Shown here: in pieces, positions 1,682 through 42,190 of the stretch | Layout: each line of letters opens with the position of its first letter | Position numbering within the stretch: the stretch's first letter is position 1 | Source of the DNA: a virus | DNA length: 42,190 nucleotides | Strand: one strand, 5' to 3' | Virus record (IMG/VR): IMGVR_UViG_3300045988_073020 | Position numbers and translations under genes: made by a program | The notes under the pieces: generated by a model | Told to the model about the DNA's origin: nothing | The model's database searches: none | Seen by the model: only the letters and a program-made list of their open reading frames with translations

Positions 1682-1795
1682 TTATTCCTCCGGATTCTCT
1701 ATCAACCAAGCTTCTGTCTTCGATCTCCAGAAGTTTGGTACCTCATTGATAGTAATAATACCGCGCCTGATTCGCAGACCGTAGAATGCACCCAT
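1682..1795 (-). CDS. Small 37-aa phage protein of the type commonly found just before holins in Clostridia phages
   Basis: Hand-translated: MGAFYGLRIRRGIITINEVPNFWRSKTEAWLIENPEE. SD GGAGG 8 nt upstream. TAATG overlap with the upstream gene. Confidence 0.6.
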   Translation of the reverse strand: MGAFYGLRIRRGIITINEVPNFWRSKTEAWLIENPEE

Positions 1796-2175
1796 TATAC
1801 TGTACCTCCTTCTGCCAGTGTTCCAACTGCTTCACCGAGATCACCGATTGCTCCGTCATGTACCGCATGGCCTTCCTCCAACGCGTCCAGACGCTTCTCC
1901 TCGTCTGTTTTTTCACGTAAGCTATACGTTGTAAAGACAACGCCATCAGTAGCGATTACGGACGTCTCAGTCACAAGCATGAGATCAGTATAATTTCCTA
2001 CAACGGTACCGTCTCCATTTTTGATTTGTACGGTTGCGAGATTATCCGGCGTCAATGTCTCCCATGTTGCCACCATGGCCATCCGATCAGCTGCCGCCAC
2101 CTGTAAGGCTCCCAGGCTTGCGCCTGCCTCCAGTTCGATAATAGTTCCATTTTTTAAAATCATAGTGTCCTTCAT
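1795..2175 (-). CDS. Hypothetical phage structural or tail-associated protein
   Basis: 126-aa ORF in operon context between the fibre and lysis genes. No recognisable motif. Confidence 0.6.
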   Translation of the reverse strand: MKDTMILKNGTIIELEAGASLGALQVAAADRMAMVATWETLTPDNLATVQIKNGDGTVVGNYTDLMLVTETSVIATDGVVFTTYSLREKTDEEKRLDALEEGHAVHDGAIGDLGEAVGTLAEGGTV

Positions 2176-2251
2176 GTACGGACTCCTTTCTCCCTTTCGG
2201 GTATAAAAATAAGAGCCTTTCAGCTCTAATTAACAGGTTTCTTATTCGTGA

Positions 2252-2266
2252 AAATAGTGATTTAGC
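2252..2266. repeat. Inverted repeat, left copy (AAATAGTGATTTAGC): candidate inversion crossover site
   Basis: Exact reverse complement occurs at 2873-2887. Confidence 0.9.
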
Positions 2267-2267
2267 A

Positions 2268-2516
2268 AAAGCAGTCTACTCAAGTAATCTTATGGCTCCT
2301 AGTGATGGCCCTGTTTTTCTCCGCTGGGATGTTGATACGTTAAATACACCCTTCAAAGCAGGACTTACATATAATACTGCTGGATTTGCCTTTGTGTATG
2401 GCGATTATTCTAACTATCAAACGGTAGTGGCCTTTGTTCAAGGACAAAGTTACTTTTTTATTCATAGTGTTGATAGCGGAAATGTTCATGGATGGAAGAA
2501 ATTCCCTGCTAATTGA
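2268..2516 (+). other. Promoterless alternative tail-fibre C-terminal cassette (82 codons) in inverted orientation
   Basis: The frame is open from 2166 to 2516 and continues in frame through the repeat (aat agt gat tta gc = NSDLA). There is no SD before the only ATG (2292). It converges on the fibre stop with a 4-nt gap. Confidence 0.65.
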
Positions 2517-2520
2517 TCAT

Positions 2521-3306
2521 TTAATTTGTTGAATATGAAAAGCTTGCAATTATATTTCTTGTGTTTTCTCCATATGTAGTTGCTTTGATTTTTCCTTCAA
2601 AAAGTATTATTCCGACAGGGTGGTTTATCGCACCGGGCTCTTCACCTATGCCTGATGCGCCTGTTGGATATATAGGAAGGAACCCATCAGGTAAAATACC
2701 GATATCAACATAAGTGTTTGTATTAATTACACTATTATCAGCTTTTCTTATTGCCAGATTGATAACACATATCCCTGAAGATTTATCTTTTATGATCCGG
2801 GTGGCCCATGTTCCATAGATGGCATAACCAGGGTTTAATGTAATATCTTTGACAATTAATCCAGTTATGCTGGCTAAATCACTATTTAACTGAGTAATCT
2901 TGTCATCGAGGGACTTCCCCATCGGACCGCTTAATACGGTTGTTGCGTCCGTCGCAAGCAGATTATTTACGATCTTACTTTTCTCAATGAGTTTTGTCAT
3001 GACCTTATCGGCGATCGCGTCAATTAGTTCCTGAGATGTCACGCTTGCTCCTGCCTCTCTCAGTACTCCGCTTGTATCCACAGCGGTGATTGCAGAAAGT
3101 GCCTCAGCCGCAAAGCCACGCGCCATATACTTCCAGTTCGCTCCCGGTGCAGGAGTTACTCCACGTAAATTATCCTTCAACGCAACCCAAGTACTCCCGT
3201 TATAATATACCACATCACCGGTTCGATATGTGGTACCTGACGCATAATTTCCTTTGTCCACAAAACCTATGCGTCCTAATTCTGTATATCCTTCTGGTGC
3301 TGCCAT
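2521..3306 (-). CDS. Tail fibre / receptor-binding protein (currently expressed variant)
   Basis: N-terminal YRTGDVVYYNGSTWVALKDN...PGANW carbohydrate-binding-like motif common in phage fibres. ATG at 3306 lies 9 nt after GGAGG. Position is downstream of the upper fibre gene. Confidence 0.8.
   Translation of the reverse strand: MAAPEGYTELGRIGFVDKGNYASGTTYRTGDVVYYNGSTWVALKDNLRGVTPAPGANWKYMARGFAAEALSAITAVDTSGVLREAGASVTSQELIDAIADKVMTKLIEKSKIVNNLLATDATTVLSGPMGKSLDDKITQLNSDLASITGLIVKDITLNPGYAIYGTWATRIIKDKSSGICVINLAIRKADNSVINTNTYVDIGILPDGFLPIYPTGASGIGEEPGAINHPVGIILFEGKIKATTYGENTRNIIASFSYSTN
2873..2887. repeat. Inverted repeat, right copy (GCTAAATCACTATTT) inside the tail-fibre gene
   Basis: Reverse complement of 2252-2266. 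Encodes NSDLA (about aa 142-146) of the fibre. Confidence 0.9.
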
Positions 3307-3331
3307 CAAATAGTACCTCCTCTTTTCTTTT

Positions 3332-3877
3332 TTATACCATAATTTTCCAATAGAGCACTGAATCCACGACAGTAAAATTCACACCTACCCCCGCTTTTAT
3401 ATAGAGGGTTGATTCTGCCGGATCAAAATAAAAACCAGGCGCTACAATCTGCGAGTACTGCGCGGCCCTGTCTGCGTCGTTTTTGGCATTGTCCGCATAA
3501 GTCCCGGCCTGCCTGCTGTAATACTCGCTGTTATTGGTATTCTCTCCCTCTCGCGTCCCGGTTCCACCGATTGCCCAGCTTTTTGCCTCCGTAGCACTTA
3601 CTGCGGAGTTTGTAGCCTGCTCTGTAGCACTTCCGAGAATATCATCCGCATGATTCAAGGTTTCATTTGCTCTCGCTGTTGCCGCATTCGCATCGGTCAC
3701 AGCTTCATTGGCTAAAGTAATTGCATTATTAATTCTTGTAACTTGCACCGCTACGTTAGCTACAACATTTTCACCCTCTTTATTGACCTTTTCAGCCAAT
3801 GAGATCATAGAGCCACGAACGTCTTTCCCTTTCCGCGCGCTCCTGAAATTCTCTATTTCTCTGCTTATATCTGCCAT
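3332..3877 (-). CDS. Tail fibre / upper baseplate-associated structural protein
   Basis: Ala/Asn-rich coiled N-terminal half followed by a beta-rich C-terminus. Lies between the Tal block and the fibre. SD GGAGG. Confidence 0.65.
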   Translation of the reverse strand: MADISREIENFRSARKGKDVRGSMISLAEKVNKEGENVVANVAVQVTRINNAITLANEAVTDANAATARANETLNHADDILGSATEQATNSAVSATEAKSWAIGGTGTREGENTNNSEYYSRQAGTYADNAKNDADRAAQYSQIVAPGFYFDPAESTLYIKAGVGVNFTVVDSVLYWKIMV

Positions 3878-3896
3878 GTTTCACCTCACTTTCCTC

Positions 3897-4550
3897 CTAT
3901 CCGACCAACTGTTTAACACTGTTTTCCTGAATGAAATCTCTGATTTTATCATATCCCCAGCCACAATTAATAAGGCCGCTGACAAGCATTTCCATAGATT
4001 GAACCGCAGATAATTCCTCAACAGTAAACCTATCTCGTAAATTGTCCTGGCTTCCTATTCCATATAATTCTCTGAGCTGCTTCGCATTTTTCCCGAATAT
4101 CGCCTTGTAAATTGCATTTGTATAAGTAGAGTACGCATGTCCATGCATTCGTTCGTTTTCCTGGGAACGCTGAAGTGTATTTGTAAGCGCTTGCCGTACA
4201 GCTATACCTTTTTCACGTTCCTTCATTTTACCGATTAATGCATTTTCCATAGCATTGAACTGCTTTATGTATGCAAGTTTAAATTTAATAGCCTTTTCTC
4301 CTGTATATCCCATTACAAGCAGTGTGAAACCATCTCTTGTCATGTAATACATCGGGTTCTTTTTTCCATTCGTCGCTACATAATAGCTTTCACTGAATAG
4401 CCCCGAAATATCGGGGCTACTGATACTCGCAGATAAATTTCTTATATCCTCAATTACGTGGTAGTGTTCTTTCCCGAATGTTTCAGCAACATCTAAACTT
4501 GTGCATGTGGCAACTTCTTCTTTATTAAATTTTCTGATTTCCACTAACAT
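3897..4550 (-). CDS. Rha family phage regulatory protein (moron inside the tail module)
   Basis: The N-terminus (TSLDVAETFGKEHYHVIEDIRNL ... MTRDGFTLLVMGYTGEKAIKFKLAYIKQFNAME) matches the Phage_pRha pattern. Has its own promoter and SD. Confidence 0.8.
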   Translation of the reverse strand: MLVEIRKFNKEEVATCTSLDVAETFGKEHYHVIEDIRNLSASISSPDISGLFSESYYVATNGKKNPMYYMTRDGFTLLVMGYTGEKAIKFKLAYIKQFNAMENALIGKMKEREKGIAVRQALTNTLQRSQENERMHGHAYSTYTNAIYKAIFGKNAKQLRELYGIGSQDNLRDRFTVEELSAVQSMEMLVSGLINCGWGYDKIRDFIQENSVKQLVG

Positions 4551-29978: not shown

Positions 29979-30353
29979 TCACTCCCGTTCTTCAATCAGT
30001 ACTTCGATGCGAGGTTCATTTCGATCACAGAAAAATTGGTCCGTAAACCCTATGACGTAGTCCCACCCATCATCTTTCAGCACACCGCATTTCACAAGTG
30101 CGTCCTGGATCACCTTCCTGCCAAAGCTTGACACATTGTCATGGTCCCTCCGCTTATTTGGCTCATACCATGAGAATTTAAGGAACACGGGCTTTTCTAT
30201 ATGTAACCGCCGTAACTGCTGTCTGATCGCCCATATGACGGTTTCCTCGTTGTCTTTCTTCATCTTCCCACCCTTATGCGGGTTTGTCCGGTTTGCTGCT
30301 GTATAGTCATTCAGGCCATCGAGGCGGCCAAATATCACCAACTTATATTCCAT
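29979..30353 (-). CDS. rusA: RusA family Holliday junction resolvase
   Basis: About 124 aa from MEYKLVIFGRLDGLNDY... with the DHDN motif. SD GGGGAAAGGAG. Confidence 0.75.
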   Translation of the reverse strand: MEYKLVIFGRLDGLNDYTAANRTNPHKGGKMKKDNEETVIWAIRQQLRRLHIEKPVFLKFSWYEPNKRRDHDNVSSFGRKVIQDALVKCGVLKDDGWDYVIGFTDQFFCDRNEPRIEVLIEERE

Positions 30354-30456
30354 AGGCTCCTTTCCCCGGTACCGCCCCTGAAATAGGCAGTACCGGTAAT
30401 ACCAATGGCATGTCGTGACACATGCTTGTATGTAATTCCCTTTCGGGATCACAAGG

Positions 30457-30762
30457 CTATAAATAGCTTTTTCCATACCTTGCACGGAATAGTTCTCTTC
30501 CCATCGGAACCATTTTCAATGCCAATTCTTTTTCATATGCCATCTGACCAAGCATCTTTGAAAGCTTTTCAGCCATCGGGTTATCATGGATTCTGCTGTT
30601 AACTTTTCCTGCGGTATGGCAGTTGTTGCAAATAGGAACCTTAAGACAGTCTTCATCCGCCAGTTCTCGATTTGCCGATCCGAAAATAAGGTGATGTTCA
30701 CAATCGGCAGGGCGGCCGCAGAAGAAGCAGTGATCCATATCATCGGTTAATAATGATATCAT
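30457..30762 (-). CDS. HNH-like zinc-binding nuclease-fold protein
   Basis: CFFCG...EHHLIFG...N...CNNCH arrangement. SD GGGAGGTG. Confidence 0.55.
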   Translation of the reverse strand: MISLLTDDMDHCFFCGRPADCEHHLIFGSANRELADEDCLKVPICNNCHTAGKVNSRIHDNPMAEKLSKMLGQMAYEKELALKMVPMGRELFRARYGKSYL

Positions 30763-30765
30763 TGC

Positions 30766-31563
30766 TTACACCTCCCCTAAAAGTTCTGTAAAGTGTATTG
30801 GTCTCATCAATACCTTTGTGTGTTTACAGTAATCACAGAGACCGCATCTGATCGGCTCTACTTCTCCGTTCTTCAGCGCTACGATCTTCGGTGTGTTATT
30901 TTCCACCTCAATCAGCTTTTCACGTAAATGGTCGTCTGGAATCCATATCAGTTCTATATCGGTTTCCTCTTCTTTCGAAGCGGCCGCAACGAAGAACGGA
31001 AGACGCTCTCCGGTATTTTGATAGACTACTTCCTGATAGACTGCCGCCTGGAGGTCATAACCCCAGTACTCTATGAAATTCATATAGCCGTAATCTTTCG
31101 TGTACTCCGCCTTATGCAGTTCTCTCATGACCTTCAGGTCCACAATGGCCTTACCAGGCAAATAGCTGTCAATTTTTATCTTCCACGGACTCCCGAACAT
31201 GTCTGCCGTCATAATAACCTGTTTCTCTCCGCCCATGAATTTCATAAAAAGATCATCACGCTCAATTCTATTGATGATTTCTTCGGCCTTGCGATACTCG
31301 GCTTTCAATGCTCCCTGTTTCGTGAAAATTTCTGGGTTCTGTGCCTGGAACAGACTAAGAGTCCCTTCAAAGTGAGCGTCTACATAAGACCCAACCATAA
31401 GCGCCGTGGTCTTTTTCATTTCCCACTCTCCGTTTAATTTTGCCATAGCTTCAGCCTCACAGGCCGGGCGCCCAATAGTTCCCATAAAGTTCTTGTACTG
31501 GCTGACCGAGAGATATTCCCGGTCAGCTTCCTTACTAAAATAATTTTCTGCTGTTAAGATCAT
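30766..31563 (-). CDS. PD-(D/E)XK recombination exonuclease (DUF3799/exonuclease VIII-like)
   Basis: KIDSY...IVDLK motif and a C-terminal Cys cluster. ATGA-coupled to recT. Confidence 0.7.
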   Translation of the reverse strand: MILTAENYFSKEADREYLSVSQYKNFMGTIGRPACEAEAMAKLNGEWEMKKTTALMVGSYVDAHFEGTLSLFQAQNPEIFTKQGALKAEYRKAEEIINRIERDDLFMKFMGGEKQVIMTADMFGSPWKIKIDSYLPGKAIVDLKVMRELHKAEYTKDYGYMNFIEYWGYDLQAAVYQEVVYQNTGERLPFFVAAASKEEETDIELIWIPDDHLREKLIEVENNTPKIVALKNGEVEPIRCGLCDYCKHTKVLMRPIHFTELLGEV

Positions 31564-32201
31564 GCCTGTGCCTCCTTCTCTTTCTCACCAAAGATATCGG
31601 GGATTTCAGGAATGTCTTTCTCCCGGATTATATCCTCAGCTTCCCCCTCAACAGAACACCCAAGGAGGGCGTCAGGAATGTAGACGCGGGCAAAGAATGC
31701 ACTAGCGCGATACGCAAGCATCAGTTCCGGCATTGTCTGCCATTTTGATGTTTCATTTCCGTAGCGGTCGATCTTAGAGAACCACTTTTCAGCTTTGGCC
31801 ACCCCTATTGTAATTTCAGGACCACGGACAAGTTCACCTGTAGACCGCCTTATAGCCTCTATATGGCACCCCCATGTATTTGTGCCTGCTTCCCCTGTAT
31901 ATACTGGCTTAACGTCCTTAAACTCAGTATTAGACTTAATCAGCGACATGCAGGCCTGTCCACTCCATGAAGGTTTTCCTTTCACAACATAGAGATTCTG
32001 CATAACAAACATAGGACTTACATGCATCCGGTTTGCCATGTCAATGGCAATCATGCAGTCGGCCGGCTTGTTCTGGTAGTTCTGCGGTATAATTTCTGTA
32101 CTTGCGAAAGCCTCCGCCATCTTCATCAGCATTTTAAAATTCGATTCGTTGTTAAATGGGTTTGCAAGCGCTGTATTTTCAACATTCATAATCTCTTCCA
32201 T
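31560..32201 (-). CDS. recT: RecT family single-strand annealing protein
   Basis: IIPQNYQNKPADCMIAIDMANRMHVSPMFVMQNLYVVKGKPSWSG matches the RecT core pattern. Confidence 0.75.
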   Translation of the reverse strand: MEEIMNVENTALANPFNNESNFKMLMKMAEAFASTEIIPQNYQNKPADCMIAIDMANRMHVSPMFVMQNLYVVKGKPSWSGQACMSLIKSNTEFKDVKPVYTGEAGTNTWGCHIEAIRRSTGELVRGPEITIGVAKAEKWFSKIDRYGNETSKWQTMPELMLAYRASAFFARVYIPDALLGCSVEGEAEDIIREKDIPEIPDIFGEKEKEAQA

Positions 32202-32210
32202 GGCTTCCTC

Positions 32211-33641
32211 CTATAATTCGACTACGGTTAATTCTGGTTCATCAGTTGTTCTTGTGGCAATGAACTGTAATCCCTTTTCCTTACATTTCCGGTATAGTTC
32301 GTTCCTCATATCAGATGACAGCTTCTCTACGCCATCAATAAGAATGATCTGCAATCCGTTCGGTTTCTGGATAGCTACGTCGATGCAAAGATCCAGTTTC
32401 TCGCCATCGGAAAGGTTACTGATTGGAAGTCCGTGGATTAAAGGAATGCCATCTTTTACCGTAAGTCCATCAATCGGAATGGTTGCTTCCTGAAGGATTT
32501 CCCCCGGAAGTTCCCTTGCCTTCTCGATTTTATCGGTCAAGGCTTTGGATTCTGCCGCCAGTTTCTCAACCTCTGATTGCAGGTTCTCCATGCGGCGGTA
32601 CTCATTTAAATGGCCCTTCATTTCCTCGGCATATTCGGCCTTCTCGGTGAGCTCTGCGGTACTTTTCACTTCTTTGCTGGCATATTCTTCGTATTGGGAT
32701 AGTTCTGCATCATACTTAGCCACGTTCGTTTTATAGGTCTGCTCCGCTAGGCTGATCTTGTCCTGTTTCTTCTCATTGAGCCCTGACAGTTCCTTTTTGC
32801 ATGACCTGATCTGCTCCTCAAGAGAGGCAATCTGTTCTTTAAGATTAGTCTCCCGCCGGGTAAACTCCTTCTCGATGGCAGACAATTCGATCTCTCTGTC
32901 CGCTTCAAAGGCTCTCATCTTATTGCTACGACTTTCAAGCATCCGTTTTGCCTTTTCGATTGTCTCATTCTCTTTACGAATCTTCTCGATCTCCCGGTAA
33001 AGCTCTCCGACATTCTCGTTATCCCACTTCTCGGCATCGTACCCGGCCGGGATCACATCCGCGATATCTTCGATAAATGCTCTTTTGTTACGGATATCCC
33101 GGTTAATATCCTGCCGGGTCTGGAAGTACTCGCCGTTTTCGGACTGGATATCATGGAGTACCTGGAGAATGTTCTGGTCATATGACACCCAGCCTGGGAT
33201 CTCTCCGAACCATTCCCGGATTTTGTTCATATCCCATGGGTAGTCAATCATATCCAAGATAATCGCATTCTGCTTTTTTCTGTCCATTGCCATAAATTCT
33301 ACCGGGGATAGCTGCAACGGGGTGAAGATATCCTTCAAAAAAGTTTCAGGGCTTCCGACTTCGTGGCCGTCTTTTTTCACGCTCTTGTAATCTGCCTGGT
33401 TTGTTCTGATCTTACGATCAATCCGCAGCCCATTGTCAGTTTCAATTAAAATTTCCCCTTCTGTCTCCCCGTCCCTTACGATGTACTCGCGATCAGAACG
33501 GTTTGTTAGCGCCAGACGGATCGCATCAATTACAGAAGTTTTACCGGCTCCGTTTCTGCCGGAAAGTTCTACGCTCTGGCCGTCTGCTTCGTACTCTTTA
33601 ATACCAAAAAGATTCTTGATCTTTATTTTTGTTAATTTCAC
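32211..33641 (-). CDS. SMC/SbcC/RecF-like AAA ATPase with a long coiled-coil
   Basis: Walker A GRNGAGKTS, a central coiled-coil and a C-terminal signature region (LSDGEKL, ILIDG). GTG start 8 nt after GGAGG. Confidence 0.75.
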   Translation of the reverse strand: MKLTKIKIKNLFGIKEYEADGQSVELSGRNGAGKTSVIDAIRLALTNRSDREYIVRDGETEGEILIETDNGLRIDRKIRTNQADYKSVKKDGHEVGSPETFLKDIFTPLQLSPVEFMAMDRKKQNAIILDMIDYPWDMNKIREWFGEIPGWVSYDQNILQVLHDIQSENGEYFQTRQDINRDIRNKRAFIEDIADVIPAGYDAEKWDNENVGELYREIEKIRKENETIEKAKRMLESRSNKMRAFEADREIELSAIEKEFTRRETNLKEQIASLEEQIRSCKKELSGLNEKKQDKISLAEQTYKTNVAKYDAELSQYEEYASKEVKSTAELTEKAEYAEEMKGHLNEYRRMENLQSEVEKLAAESKALTDKIEKARELPGEILQEATIPIDGLTVKDGIPLIHGLPISNLSDGEKLDLCIDVAIQKPNGLQIILIDGVEKLSSDMRNELYRKCKEKGLQFIATRTTDEPELTVVEL

Positions 33642-33691
33642 GCTTGATTTCCTCCAATGCCTCATATATAATGAGGATGAAAATTTGTTTT

Positions 33692-37520: not shown

Positions 37521-37677
37521 CATGAAAAAAGCCCCAGGAGCTACCAACTCCCAGAGCTTTCCAACACACATATCAGCCAGAGCCGATACACATGCCCTCA
37601 ACAAGCATATTGTATCACAGCTCTGGCAAAAAATACAGGGCTATTTTTATGCCCTTTCGAAAGAAAGGAGAAGTATT

Positions 37678-38796
37678 ATGCCTAAGAAACGTAAAGATGG
37701 AAGATACTCCAAGCAGGTAACCATCGGTATCAAAGACGGAAAACCAGTCCGTAAAACAATTTATGGCAGCACTATCAAAGAATTAGATAAGAACTATCGT
37801 GATTTTATGAGTCTTATGGACAAAGGAATCATCTTACAGGAACAGAACACCACCTTTAAAGAATTGTCTGAATTATGGCTTACAAACGAGAAGCTCGGAA
37901 GCGTTAGAGACCAGACAATAAGTACGATTAAAGGTCAGTTAAGTACCGTTAACAGCTATATCGGAGATATAAGAATCAAAGACTTACGGATGTCGCACAT
38001 TGAATCGTTTCGAAGCTATATGATAAAATCAAAAAAACTGGCCCAGTACAATCTGTGCCTGTCCCGAATCAAAGCAATCGTCCGTTATGCAGTCCAGAAA
38101 GACATTATGGCAAAAGATATTACTGCTGGAATGAAGAGAGTCAAAATAGACAAAAAACCAAAGCGCGCTCTTACGTCTGAAGAACGTCTGTTATTTGAAA
38201 TAGCAGACCTTGATAGTTTTGAGCGCTGCTTCATCAACCTGCTTCTCTACACTGGCTTAAGAAAGTGCGAAGCGCTTGCATTAGATGTAAAAGATATCGA
38301 CTTAAAAAAGAATCAGATTTACGTTTCTAAAACATTGGTTGCCAGTAAGAAAATCAATACCTGCCTGCAGGAATACACAAAGACTGCTGCCGGACTCCGC
38401 CAGATACCGATTCCCGCCCCGTTGGCAAAAATCCTTTTCGAATTCATAAAAGGCCGATCGGGAATTCTTTTTCCCTCAAAAAGCGGCAGATATATTTCTA
38501 CCCTCGATTATAAATGGGAAAAAATACTTAAAAAAGTTCAGGCTGTATCAAGCACCCCTCTATCAGATGATATCACGCCACATATTTTCCGGCACACCTA
38601 TGCCAGTGATTTATACAAAGCAGGTGTTGATATCAAGCAGGCTCAGTATCTCCTCGGACACGATGACATTAAGACCACGCTTGACACCTACACCCATTTT
38701 GGATTTTTCGATGTGGAGCCGGATAAACTGGAGGATTACTATAATGCAGTCAAAATGCAGTCAAACGATAATATCATACCCATGAAACATGCATAA
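37678..38796 (+). CDS. int: Tyrosine site-specific integrase
   Basis: C-terminal catalytic pattern TGLRKCEALAL...HIFRHTYASDL...LLGHDDIKTTLDTYTH. The start is set to the ATG after AAAGGAG. Confidence 0.9.
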   Translation: MPKKRKDGRYSKQVTIGIKDGKPVRKTIYGSTIKELDKNYRDFMSLMDKGIILQEQNTTFKELSELWLTNEKLGSVRDQTISTIKGQLSTVNSYIGDIRIKDLRMSHIESFRSYMIKSKKLAQYNLCLSRIKAIVRYAVQKDIMAKDITAGMKRVKIDKKPKRALTSEERLLFEIADLDSFERCFINLLLYTGLRKCEALALDVKDIDLKKNQIYVSKTLVASKKINTCLQEYTKTAAGLRQIPIPAPLAKILFEFIKGRSGILFPSKSGRYISTLDYKWEKILKKVQAVSSTPLSDDITPHIFRHTYASDLYKAGVDIKQAQYLLGHDDIKTTLDTYTHFGFFDVEPDKLEDYYNAVKMQSNDNIIPMKHA

Positions 38797-38973: not shown

Positions 38974-39069
38974 GAATGATACAATATGCTTATGCATTTA
39001 GATGGTACCAAACAGGCCGCCTAATCAAAATAATCAAGTGAAATAATATAACTGAATGGAGATGAAAAG

Positions 39070-39821: not shown

Positions 39822-39910
39822 ATTATATACTATAGCGCCCTATATTTCAATATACACATTCGCTAAAATTAGCGCACTAATATTGTGCAGTATGTATATA
39901 GCGCGCTAAA
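39822..39910. promoter_or_regulatory. Promoter TTGAAA-17-TATAAT (minus strand) with operator site A in its spacer, plus sites B and C
   Basis: Site A TATAGCGCCCTATA 39831-44, site B ATTAGCGCACTAAT 39868-81, site C TATAGCGCGCTAAA 39897-910. rc of 39845-50 is TTGAAA and rc of 39822-27 is TATAAT. Confidence 0.65.
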
Positions 39911-39949
39911 CTATTTTTTGTTACACTATAATAAAAGGAGGGCTTAAAT

Positions 39950-40147
39950 ATGGCATATAGCGAAAAGCAAAAAGAATACACAATGAAATATCTGGAAAAA
40001 TTAAAAGAGATCAGATTTCGAGTTAGACCAGAAGAATACCAGAAGTATGAGGAAGCTGCTGAAAAAGCAGGATATCCAAGTATGCGACAATTCTATATGG
40101 ATGCGATAGATGAGAAAGTAAATAAAATTTTAAATTTAAGGGAATAA
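39950..40147 (+). CDS. Small RHH/Arc-like DNA-binding protein (candidate repressor of the island)
   Basis: IRFRVRPEEYQKYEEAAEKAGYPSMRQFYMDAIDEKV has a beta-strand plus two-helix layout. Strong SD AAGGAGGG. Confidence 0.6.
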   Translation: MAYSEKQKEYTMKYLEKLKEIRFRVRPEEYQKYEEAAEKAGYPSMRQFYMDAIDEKVNKILNLRE

Positions 40148-40164
40148 GGAAGTAAGGGAGAATT

Positions 40165-40343
40165 ATGTTTGACGAAAAGCATGGGATAGAAACGAATGGA
40201 TTGAAAGTAAAGTAGTTGAAGAACATTTTAACATGACTTTTGGTGAATGCATGGAAGAGTTTGGTTTTAATCGTGAGGTTGAATGGAATAAACCTCCTTT
40301 GAATGGCCAGAAGATAACTACGTACTTTAGAAAGCATAAATAA
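40165..40343 (+). pseudogene. Frameshifted small ORF (ATG/SD in one frame, protein-like continuation in the -1 frame)
   Basis: ATG 40165 follows GGGAG and reads 16 codons to a stop. The frame from 40173 reads RKAWDRNEWIESKVVEEHFNMTFGECMEEFGFNREVEWNKPPLNGQKITTYFRKHK. The switch point is an A-run at 40175-40178. Confidence 0.35.
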
Positions 40344-40350
40344 GCTTTAA

Positions 40351-40397
40351 ATTAGTGCGCTAATTGCATTGACATATAGTGCGCTATATGATATAAT
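40351..40397 (+). promoter_or_regulatory. Consensus promoter TTGACA-17-TATAAT with operator site E in the spacer and site D upstream
   Basis: Site D ATTAGTGCGCTAAT 40351-64 (exact rc of site B). TTGACA at 40369-74. Site E TATAGTGCGCTATA at 40375-88. TATAAT at 40392-97. Confidence 0.7.
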
Positions 40398-42135: not shown

Positions 42136-42190
42136 ATATTATGTCGTACATAATGCTATATTGTAGGATACGGAGGGTAAAATCATGAAA
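42136..42190. repeat. Terminal direct repeat, copy 2 (identical to 1-55)
   Basis: Base-by-base comparison of both window ends gives a 55/55 match. Confidence 0.98.

Follow-up and report, generated by a model that had tools for sequence, protein, structure and literature searches.

A recombinase-less tail-fibre shufflon cassette in a temperate phage of gut Lachnospiraceae, probably served in trans by an Xer-like tyrosine recombinase

The R64/IncI shufflon uses the tyrosine recombinase Rci and sfx sites, and its multiple inversions swap the C-terminus of the PilV adhesin; the sites are short, with only one part of each conserved and, to our knowledge, Rci has been reported to give inversions only. 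In the Gin, Cin, Pin and Min switches, a small serine invertase is encoded beside the segment and works on dyad sites of 26 base pairs (bp), each with a 2-bp core, together with an enhancer bound by Fis; in p15B Min there are several crossover sites. Mpi and the trans-acting global invertase RecV of Clostridioides difficile are chromosomal and act mostly on promoters. In Bacteroides fragilis, Mpi alone flips several unlinked invertible regions (PMC6109161). Programmed inversion of tail-fibre genes is a known class (PMC9881135), and in Bifidobacterium and Eggerthella prophages the Rin shufflon combines a tyrosine invertase with an 11-bp rix site; the Rin work also reports a simpler inverted locus with an 8-bp site and without a flanking recombinase (PMC6109161, PMC8778435). 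Here, we analyse positions 2252-2887, within the tail-fibre locus of the phage genome held in the IMG/VR virus record IMGVR_UViG_3300045988_073020 (42,190 nucleotides, nt; the whole stretch is referred to below as the window). A first-pass annotation of the bare sequence had proposed this segment as an invertible switch of the fibre C-terminus. We conclude that it is very probably a two-tip invertible shufflon cassette, the sites of which would be substrates of a family of Xer-like recombinases, with the enzyme probably supplied in trans.

The elements of the cassette and of the fibre gene that it completes are the following:

2252-2266: left arm of the inverted repeat, crossover site on the silent side, with the core AAATAGTGATTTA at 2252-2264 (plus strand)
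2253-2516, plus strand: tip a, silent and promoterless (NSDLA followed by KAVYSSNLMAPSDG...HGWKKFPAN), stop TGA at 2514-2516
2514-2523: tail-to-tail junction TGATCATTTA, comprising TGA (plus-strand stop), the palindrome TGATCA (2514-2519) and TAA (minus-strand stop)
2521-2874, minus strand: tip b, expressed, 116 amino acids after NSDLA (ASITGLIVKD...SYSTN), stop TAA at 2523-2521
2873-2887: right arm, crossover site on the expressed side, with the core TAAATCACTATTT at 2875-2887 (minus strand), encoding NSDL(A)
2888-3306, minus strand: constant N-terminal stalk, residues 1-140, ending in ...MGKSLDDKITQL, with a CBM_5_12-like motif and a phage-fibre repeat

The inverted repeat is perfect over 15 nt: AAATAGTGATTTAGC occupies 2252-2266, and 2873-2887 reads as its exact reverse complement. 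A spacer of 606 nt separates the arms, and the whole element spans 636 nt. When the window was shuffled 300 times with its dinucleotide counts preserved, perfect inverted repeats of at least 15 nt within 1 kilobase (kb) arose 0.033 times per shuffle, in line with the earlier chance estimate of about 0.04. The fibre gene (2521-3306, minus strand, 261 amino acids) has its likely start at the ATG at 3306, with AGGAGG upstream. NSDLA then forms residues 141-145, or 142-146 when counted from a TTG one codon upstream, which is where the first-pass annotation had placed it. Read on the plus strand, these codons (aat agt gat tta gc) begin an 87-residue frame, NSDLA included, of which tip a makes up 82 residues. 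This frame has no Shine-Dalgarno sequence, its sole ATG is internal (at 2292), and a gap of 4 nt (2517-2520) lies between the stops of the two convergent frames. The 15-bp repeat bracketing 636 bp, the plus-strand frame running to 2516 without a plausible start of its own and the 4-nt gap had all been described correctly in the first pass. The segment has a G+C content of 0.32-0.40 compared with about 0.5 in the flanks, and the GC skew of its plus-strand half fits plus-strand coding.

The locus has the layout of a shufflon, namely a constant N-terminal fibre segment (the stalk) followed by alternative promoterless C-terminal segments (tip b and silent tip a). Its crossover repeat is short, in frame, located at the 5' end of the variable segments and present in inverted copies, as in the shufflons of receptor-binding proteins that use a tyrosine recombinase. 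Across relatives, the conserved stretch is 13-14 nt, (A)AAATAGTGATTTA, and the inner two bases of the 15-mer go with individual tips. Positions 3 and 13 of the site differ among copies, which leaves TAGTGATTT as the invariant stretch. In L001-L027 and L203-L225, every tip begins with the core, and a variant core, AAATAGCAATTTA (encoding NSNL), is present in both arms of the L039 cassette, i.e. the arms co-vary. The TGATCA junction is shared by eight of the ten cassette types compared.

Judged from its matches, silent tip a is a genuine fibre tip, as the first-pass annotation had supposed. The 87-residue open reading frame (ORF) is found at 100% identity in three protein clusters, and tip a, again at 100% identity, forms the C-terminus of complete fibres (P0003, P0056-63, P0065, P0067 and P0069); P0003 (153 amino acids) is a complete small fibre in which a collagen-like N-terminus is joined to tip a at ...ISDLA. 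At about 100% identity, tip a is carried by at least five other unrelated stalks, including that of a Hungatella hathewayi protein, and more distant fibres conserve its domain (WD.NT..TPFK.G...G...G...W). Its AlphaFold (AF2) model is all-beta, with predicted local distance difference test (pLDDT) values of 67-88. A Foldseek search with this model returned nothing at E <= 0.001, the best weak matches being phage fibre and receptor-binding proteins. For the fibre gene as a whole, Pfam gives weak Phage_fiber_rpt and CBM_5_12 matches, and a sequence search against the PDB gave nothing useful. The window stalk in turn (99-100% identity) bears at least 19 different tips, all joined at NSDL directly after ...KITQL.

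Near-identical prophages carry the identical 636-bp cassette at the same locus in either orientation. The flanks of L013 and L014 are 99.97% identical (8192/8194 and 3988/3990), and their cassettes are exact reverse complements (636/636); the window cassette equals that of L013 at 636/636. IMG/VR holds further flipped pairs (L207/L213 versus L208/L209, and L211 versus L214). Tip b is the silent partner in L013, L207, L213 and L203, and the expressed one in L014, L017, L208 and L209. Both the proposal of an invertible fibre C-terminus and the earlier advice to look for relatives in the other orientation are thereby borne out for the identical cassette in other phages, and other cassettes on the window-type stalk also occur both ways. 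Thus, the GEVTNG/TAMVIG cassette on this stalk is present in one orientation in L224 and L225 and in the other in L223, each tip being the silent partner of the other. For the cassette of tips c and d, both tips are found expressed on the window-type stalk. As a pair, only the arrangement with d expressed and c silent is seen, and expressed c has a different silent partner.

Cassettes also move. Using blastn against contigs that contain tip a, positions 2252-2887 were matched at 99.5-100% identity in phages of the window, collagen and myovirus types as well as in other contexts, and this homology ends at the repeat arms (it begins at the left arm in L001-L012, L013 and L203). Collagen-type prophages from several samples, found via the window endolysin, have four sites in the order + - + - and two cassettes each, one in the fibre gene and the other about 4 kb off, beyond the lysis genes and small genes. 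In L016 compared with L014 (flanks 8194/8194 and 3990/3990), the two cassettes have been traded between the fibre locus and the distal locus (452/452 direct and 636/636 reverse complement); three inversions suffice as an explanation. L015 and L019 are identical at 3898/3900 positions upstream of the cassette, and their distal cassette is exactly flipped (567/567). In L022, the lysis segment between the cassettes is inverted relative to the fibre. In an observation apart, distal cassettes (L004:3040-3110, L001:5790-5842 and L012:190-240) adjoin a divergent promoter region with a Cheo-box-like palindrome, AACAAACA[AT][AT]TGTTCG, upstream of the gene for either a LexA-like repressor or a 57-residue Cys-rich protein.

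Sites are over-represented at the ends of sequences: 45 of 305 fall no more than 128 nt from the end of a contig or locus, compared with 15 expected, an excess that fits branching assemblies. Three scaffolds of one isolate, Enterocloster lavalensis KCTC 15153 (L028, L029 and L032), carry three prophages with such a fibre. The same tip (TESKNEVLLYSG...) follows NSDL, TSDL or ISDL, and all three scaffolds stop about 290-350 nt past the site, consistent with an assembly interrupted by a cassette that is shared or heterogeneous.

We then consider the enzyme. Pfam and PHROG scans covered 50 window ORF translations, mostly longer than 90 residues and lying outside the structural genes at 7.3-21 kb, and phmmer/tblastn probes covered all window ORFs of at least 80 residues. 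Neither approach found a serine recombinase in the window, and the 50 translations contain no Resolvase domain. Gin and Hin and a large serine recombinase gave no phmmer match in the window or beside related cassettes. A serine invertase was rejected as a candidate, the lone Resolvase protein sitting on an unrelated mobilisable element inserted beside L014. The single recombinase found is the following:

37522-38796, plus strand: phage integrase, 424 amino acids, the only recombinase found in the genome (Pfam Phage_integrase, Phage_int_M and SAM_3)

The first-pass statement that a Hin/Gin-type invertase is missing and that a tyrosine integrase is the sole recombinase therefore holds for the complete circular genome.

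Some relatives of the cassette are, on the other hand, accompanied by a recombinase gene of another family. In two more distant relatives (L031 and L036) a gene for a tyrosine recombinase of 343-345 residues directly follows the cassette and is flanked by a third copy of the repeat, and the position of the site in the fibre is the homologous one; with Pfam and NCBIfam, the protein groups with XerA/C/D-like tyrosine recombinases without an arm-binding domain. About 160 further loci with relatives of this recombinase were taken from IMG/VR and metagenomes. Sites of the form AA[AG]TAGNNA[AT]TT[AG] are present in 92 of 163 loci, AARTAGNNATTTR being the site family that contains the core AAATAGTGATTTA, and the typical order of multi-site loci is site+ ... 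site-, recombinase, site+ ... site-. Five occurrences of the exact window core were counted among the recombinase loci; in L188, for example, it flanks a cassette that lies 37 nt away from the gene for the recombinase. At E <= 1e-30, relatives of the family (roughly 330-345 residues) in the database number more than 4,000, many of them on contigs of about 1.8 kb, which suggests that the switch breaks metagenome assemblies.

A direct link between this family and the window's own cassette is provided by a myovirus-type prophage of H. hathewayi (GCA_022834975.1, locus L203), the source of fibre P0056. L203 holds the window's cassette at 99.7-100% identity, with tip a expressed. A putative Xer-like tyrosine invertase without an arm-binding domain, lacking in the window, is present here beside the identical cassette: the gene for a 339-residue family member, 38-43% identical to others, begins 78 nt past its second site. 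Beyond the recombinase comes another cassette, with ATATAGTGATTTA and TAAATCACTATAT at its ends. In L204 and L205, from two metagenomes, the same prophage is found without the recombinase and the second cassette, owing to a precise 2,028-bp deletion between direct sites (L203:10971-13011 versus L204:10969-10991), the junction of which, GCTAAATCACTAT joined to ATCATTTAGTC, falls inside the site. Directly oriented sites evidently recombine, as read from this junction, and a shufflon can delete its own enzyme in this way, a route to a single-cassette, recombinase-less state like that of the window. The collagen-type phages (L208:778-1323; L206 and L209-L214) encode a different candidate invertase, a 182-residue tyrosine recombinase consisting of the catalytic domain only (FimE-like below threshold), near HNH and terminase genes about 16 kb from the cassette. 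It has no homolog in the window, and in related phages (L215-L219, at about 80-1170) a full 344-residue member of the shufflon family stands at the same place.

Events of another kind were also seen. Single tips swap partners, with breakpoints at the central TGATCA; tip c, for instance, is paired with d, DKRLNAIT or AVAIGETS. Separately, tails were seen to meet at TGATCA in the centre of the cassettes of L001, L013-L015, L021 and L022, with the TGA providing stops on both strands. Tip d (82 residues) derives from a 141-residue tip by a 177-nt deletion (L013:13200-13449 versus L014:13230-13272), the ends of which are the site AAATAGTGATTTAAG and an internal pseudo-site, AAAACTGATTTAAG; recombination at 5' sites leaves this deletion unexplained.

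We propose that the DNA encoding NSDL, (A)AAATAGTGATTTA, would act as a site-specific recombination site, its inverted second copy heading the silent tip. Conservative recombination between the two would invert the 636 bp and join the stalk in frame to the other tip, changing the fibre from 261 residues (tip b) to 227 (tip a); the junctions expected of the inverted form are ...CGTGAAAATAGTGATTTAGCCAGCATAACTGG... on the left and ...AGACTGCTTTTGCTAAATCACTATTTAACTGAG... on the right. The change of tip would presumably alter receptor specificity, and with it host range. Going by the pairing of site and gene in relatives, the reaction is probably catalysed by an Xer-like tyrosine recombinase of roughly 330-345 residues without an arm-binding domain. 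Precise deletion between direct sites would leave a recombinase-less state of the kind seen in the window, and the window cassette would flip, or be swapped for other cassettes, only with a recombinase supplied in trans by the host or, as appears likeliest, by a co-resident prophage. Because the cassette is 100% identical in three unrelated phage types, these have probably resided together recently.

Several observations weigh against this proposal. The window, a complete genome, contains no homolog of the shufflon-family recombinase, and co-residence of a family recombinase with the window phage is not demonstrated in any genome. L203 apart, the metagenomic recombinase-bearing loci share no tip with the window pool at 60% identity or above. 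The flips in collagen-type phages were rejected as proof of action in trans, since these phages have their own 182-residue tyrosine recombinase, and the re-assortment of single tips at TGATCA is impossible by recombination at 5' sites. Finally, the first pass had predicted that inversion would fuse about 146 residues to the 82-residue tip; the frame is as predicted, but the exact flipped product (window stalk plus tip a) is absent among 5.8 billion proteins, where the unflipped form (P0017) has 30 members. For the window's own phage lineage, inversion is thus inferred. The missing enzyme and the fact that the protein database has this stalk and cassette solely in the b-expressed form would also suit a frozen relic, in which the cassette has been locked with tip b since the recombinase was lost and tip a is a silent fossil due to decay. 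This is unlikely: both sites are perfect, the tip a ORF is intact and 100% identical to copies expressed elsewhere, and the 636/636 identity with cassettes in other phage types implies very recent transfer. Moreover, because no fewer than 19 tips, among them both members of two other cassettes, are found on the window-type stalk, the lineage appears to be still exchanging and flipping them.

Two further explanations dispense with the Xer-like family altogether. Short-homology recombination at the NSDL codons, by the phage's own recombination module, or replication template switching from one short inverted repeat to the other would need no dedicated recombinase; the window does encode a RecT-like protein, a DUF3799 PDDEXK nuclease, an SMC-like ATPase and a RusA-like resolvase and no invertase, and microhomology could account for the 177-nt deletion that runs from AAATAGTGATTTAAG to the pseudo-site AAAACTGATTTAAG. 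Yet only 13-14 nt are held in common, and Red/RecT-type systems work efficiently only on homology far above this length. The events are precise, and frequent enough that near-identical prophages differ in nothing else, silent in-frame tips are intact in every cassette, and the site family is systematically paired with a dedicated recombinase gene, which the identical cassette itself adjoins. We therefore regard this route as very improbable. Still less credible is that the integrase doubles as the invertase, even though it belongs to the tyrosine superfamily and is the sole site-specific recombinase of the genome. It falls outside the shufflon-recombinase family, with 21% identity to the L203 recombinase over the catalytic domain only, and has the N-terminal and central domains of an integrase (Phage_int_M and SAM_3); by eye, without a formal search, nothing site-like was seen around the prophage end at about 39066. 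The same site is, besides, used by unrelated phage types, some of them integrated at a different host locus. The integrase was rejected on its domain architecture, this low identity and the lack of a site-like sequence by eye.

Supply of an Xer-like recombinase in trans to a two-tip cassette thus remains the reading that we prefer. We can also conceive, as a possibility that we raise without favouring it, that tip cassettes, with or without a recombinase gene, are mobile modules of a communal, integron-like pool. Excised by Xer-like recombinases acting on direct sites, cassettes would be inserted by them into any compatible fibre gene at its NSDL site, with TGATCA as a second exchange point. 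The pool would be common to unrelated prophages, siphoviruses and myoviruses alike, within one Hungatella/Enterocloster cell, and recombinase-less phages would be free-riders on a helper prophage.

The window itself is a complete circular temperate phage genome of 42.1 kb with a terminal overlap of 55 nt (1-55 = 42136-42190); prophage L018 bridges both window ends, and the prophage boundary (attP) lies near 39066. The genomes matched by the stalk belong to Enterocloster lavalensis, E. citroniae, Hungatella, Kineothrix, Lacrimispora and other Lachnospiraceae; the window phage is a temperate siphovirus of gut Lachnospiraceae of the Hungatella/Enterocloster group. A blastn search of positions 1700-4000 against GenBank phage records gave one irrelevant 66-nt match and no annotated relatives. 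Downstream of the fibre gene the window contains:

2212-2227, minus strand: terminator-like hairpin, AGAGCTGAAAGGCTCT then TTATTTTTATA (consensus match only)
1795-2175, minus strand: conserved gene of 126 amino acids after the cassette, in an XkdW-like position, before a 37-residue gene, holin and endolysin
1189-1677: holin
242-1081: endolysin

The hairpin is outside the cassette and 3' of the fibre gene whichever the orientation, and the last site in L203 and L204 has an analogous hairpin. The 126-residue product has no family match in Pfam or PHROG; a homolog of its gene comes after the shufflon in L036. The block formed by this gene, the holin and the endolysin shows 99.5-99.9% nucleotide identity between two phages with otherwise unrelated tail modules, and the exact endolysin protein is recorded in 488 blocks of the contig collection. 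Within the tail module, a gene for a Rha-family regulator (3897-4550) is missing from L018, which is otherwise 98-100% identical, and present in L021 and L224, an indel polymorphism (moron). The recombination module at 30457-33665 encodes an SMC-like ATPase (484 residues), the RecT-like protein (213 residues, 31560-32201), the DUF3799 PDDEXK nuclease (265 residues) and a DUF968 protein, and is adjoined by the gene for the RusA-like resolvase (29979-30485). A second perfect 15-nt inverted repeat (39867/40351) was rejected as a second switch, being one of several TAGCGCNCTA operator-like palindromes. At 39830-40390, palindromes of this type flank a small ribbon-helix-helix-like gene (39951-40147, plus strand) and look like operators.

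Tail-fibre tips decide which bacteria a phage attacks, and at this locus a 13-nt site would let temperate phages of abundant gut Lachnospiraceae switch and exchange them through programmed recombination. A cassette that has perfect sites yet no enzyme of its own suggests that the host-range switch of one prophage depends on the recombinase of another and, should the cassettes indeed be mobile modules, unrelated prophages in one cell would draw on one pool of tips. With the site and the recombinase family in hand, such switches can be annotated and fragmented phage assemblies read, and both may guide the design of swappable fibre tips for phages of hard-to-culture anaerobes.

Our full-text literature search found no description of this Lachnospiraceae family, its site, dispersed cassettes or orphan copies, which is not proof of their absence. 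Among known systems, the Mu G and P1 C switches had been invoked in the first pass. The logic of switching is indeed that of Mu G (Gin), P1 C (Cin), e14 P (Pin) and p15B Min, in that a constant fibre N-terminus receives C-termini switched by inversion within the gene, but the enzyme is not: relatives pair the site with an Xer-like tyrosine recombinase, and no serine recombinase is found here or beside related cassettes. The site is not a 26-bp dyad either, 13-14 nt being conserved with no second half-site, and the variable segments come without separate tail-fibre assembly genes. Mpi and RecV offer a precedent for an invertible segment without an adjacent recombinase; here, however, the likely donor would be another prophage, and action in trans is our proposal. 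With the R64 shufflon, the system shares the tyrosine recombinase class, short, partly conserved sites and multiple inversions that swap a C-terminus. It differs in its target (a phage fibre and not a pilus adhesin), in the precise deletion between direct sites (L204/L205 versus L203) and in cassettes that are common to unrelated replicons. The Rin shufflon has the same constant N-terminal segment of a receptor-binding-protein gene followed by promoterless variable C-terminal segments, short asymmetric crossover repeats (11 bp in rix, 13-14 nt here) and an invertase, putative here, of the Xer-like tyrosine class, without an arm-binding domain and separate from the phage integrase. On the other hand, the host phylum (Bacillota/Lachnospiraceae here) and the site sequence are different, tips are paired tail to tail and joined at TGATCA, some phages have a second cassette several kb off, across the lysis genes, and the window has no shufflon recombinase. 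Set among these systems, the feature in the window is a shufflon of the Rin/Rci type, in the form of an orphan cassette without a recombinase.

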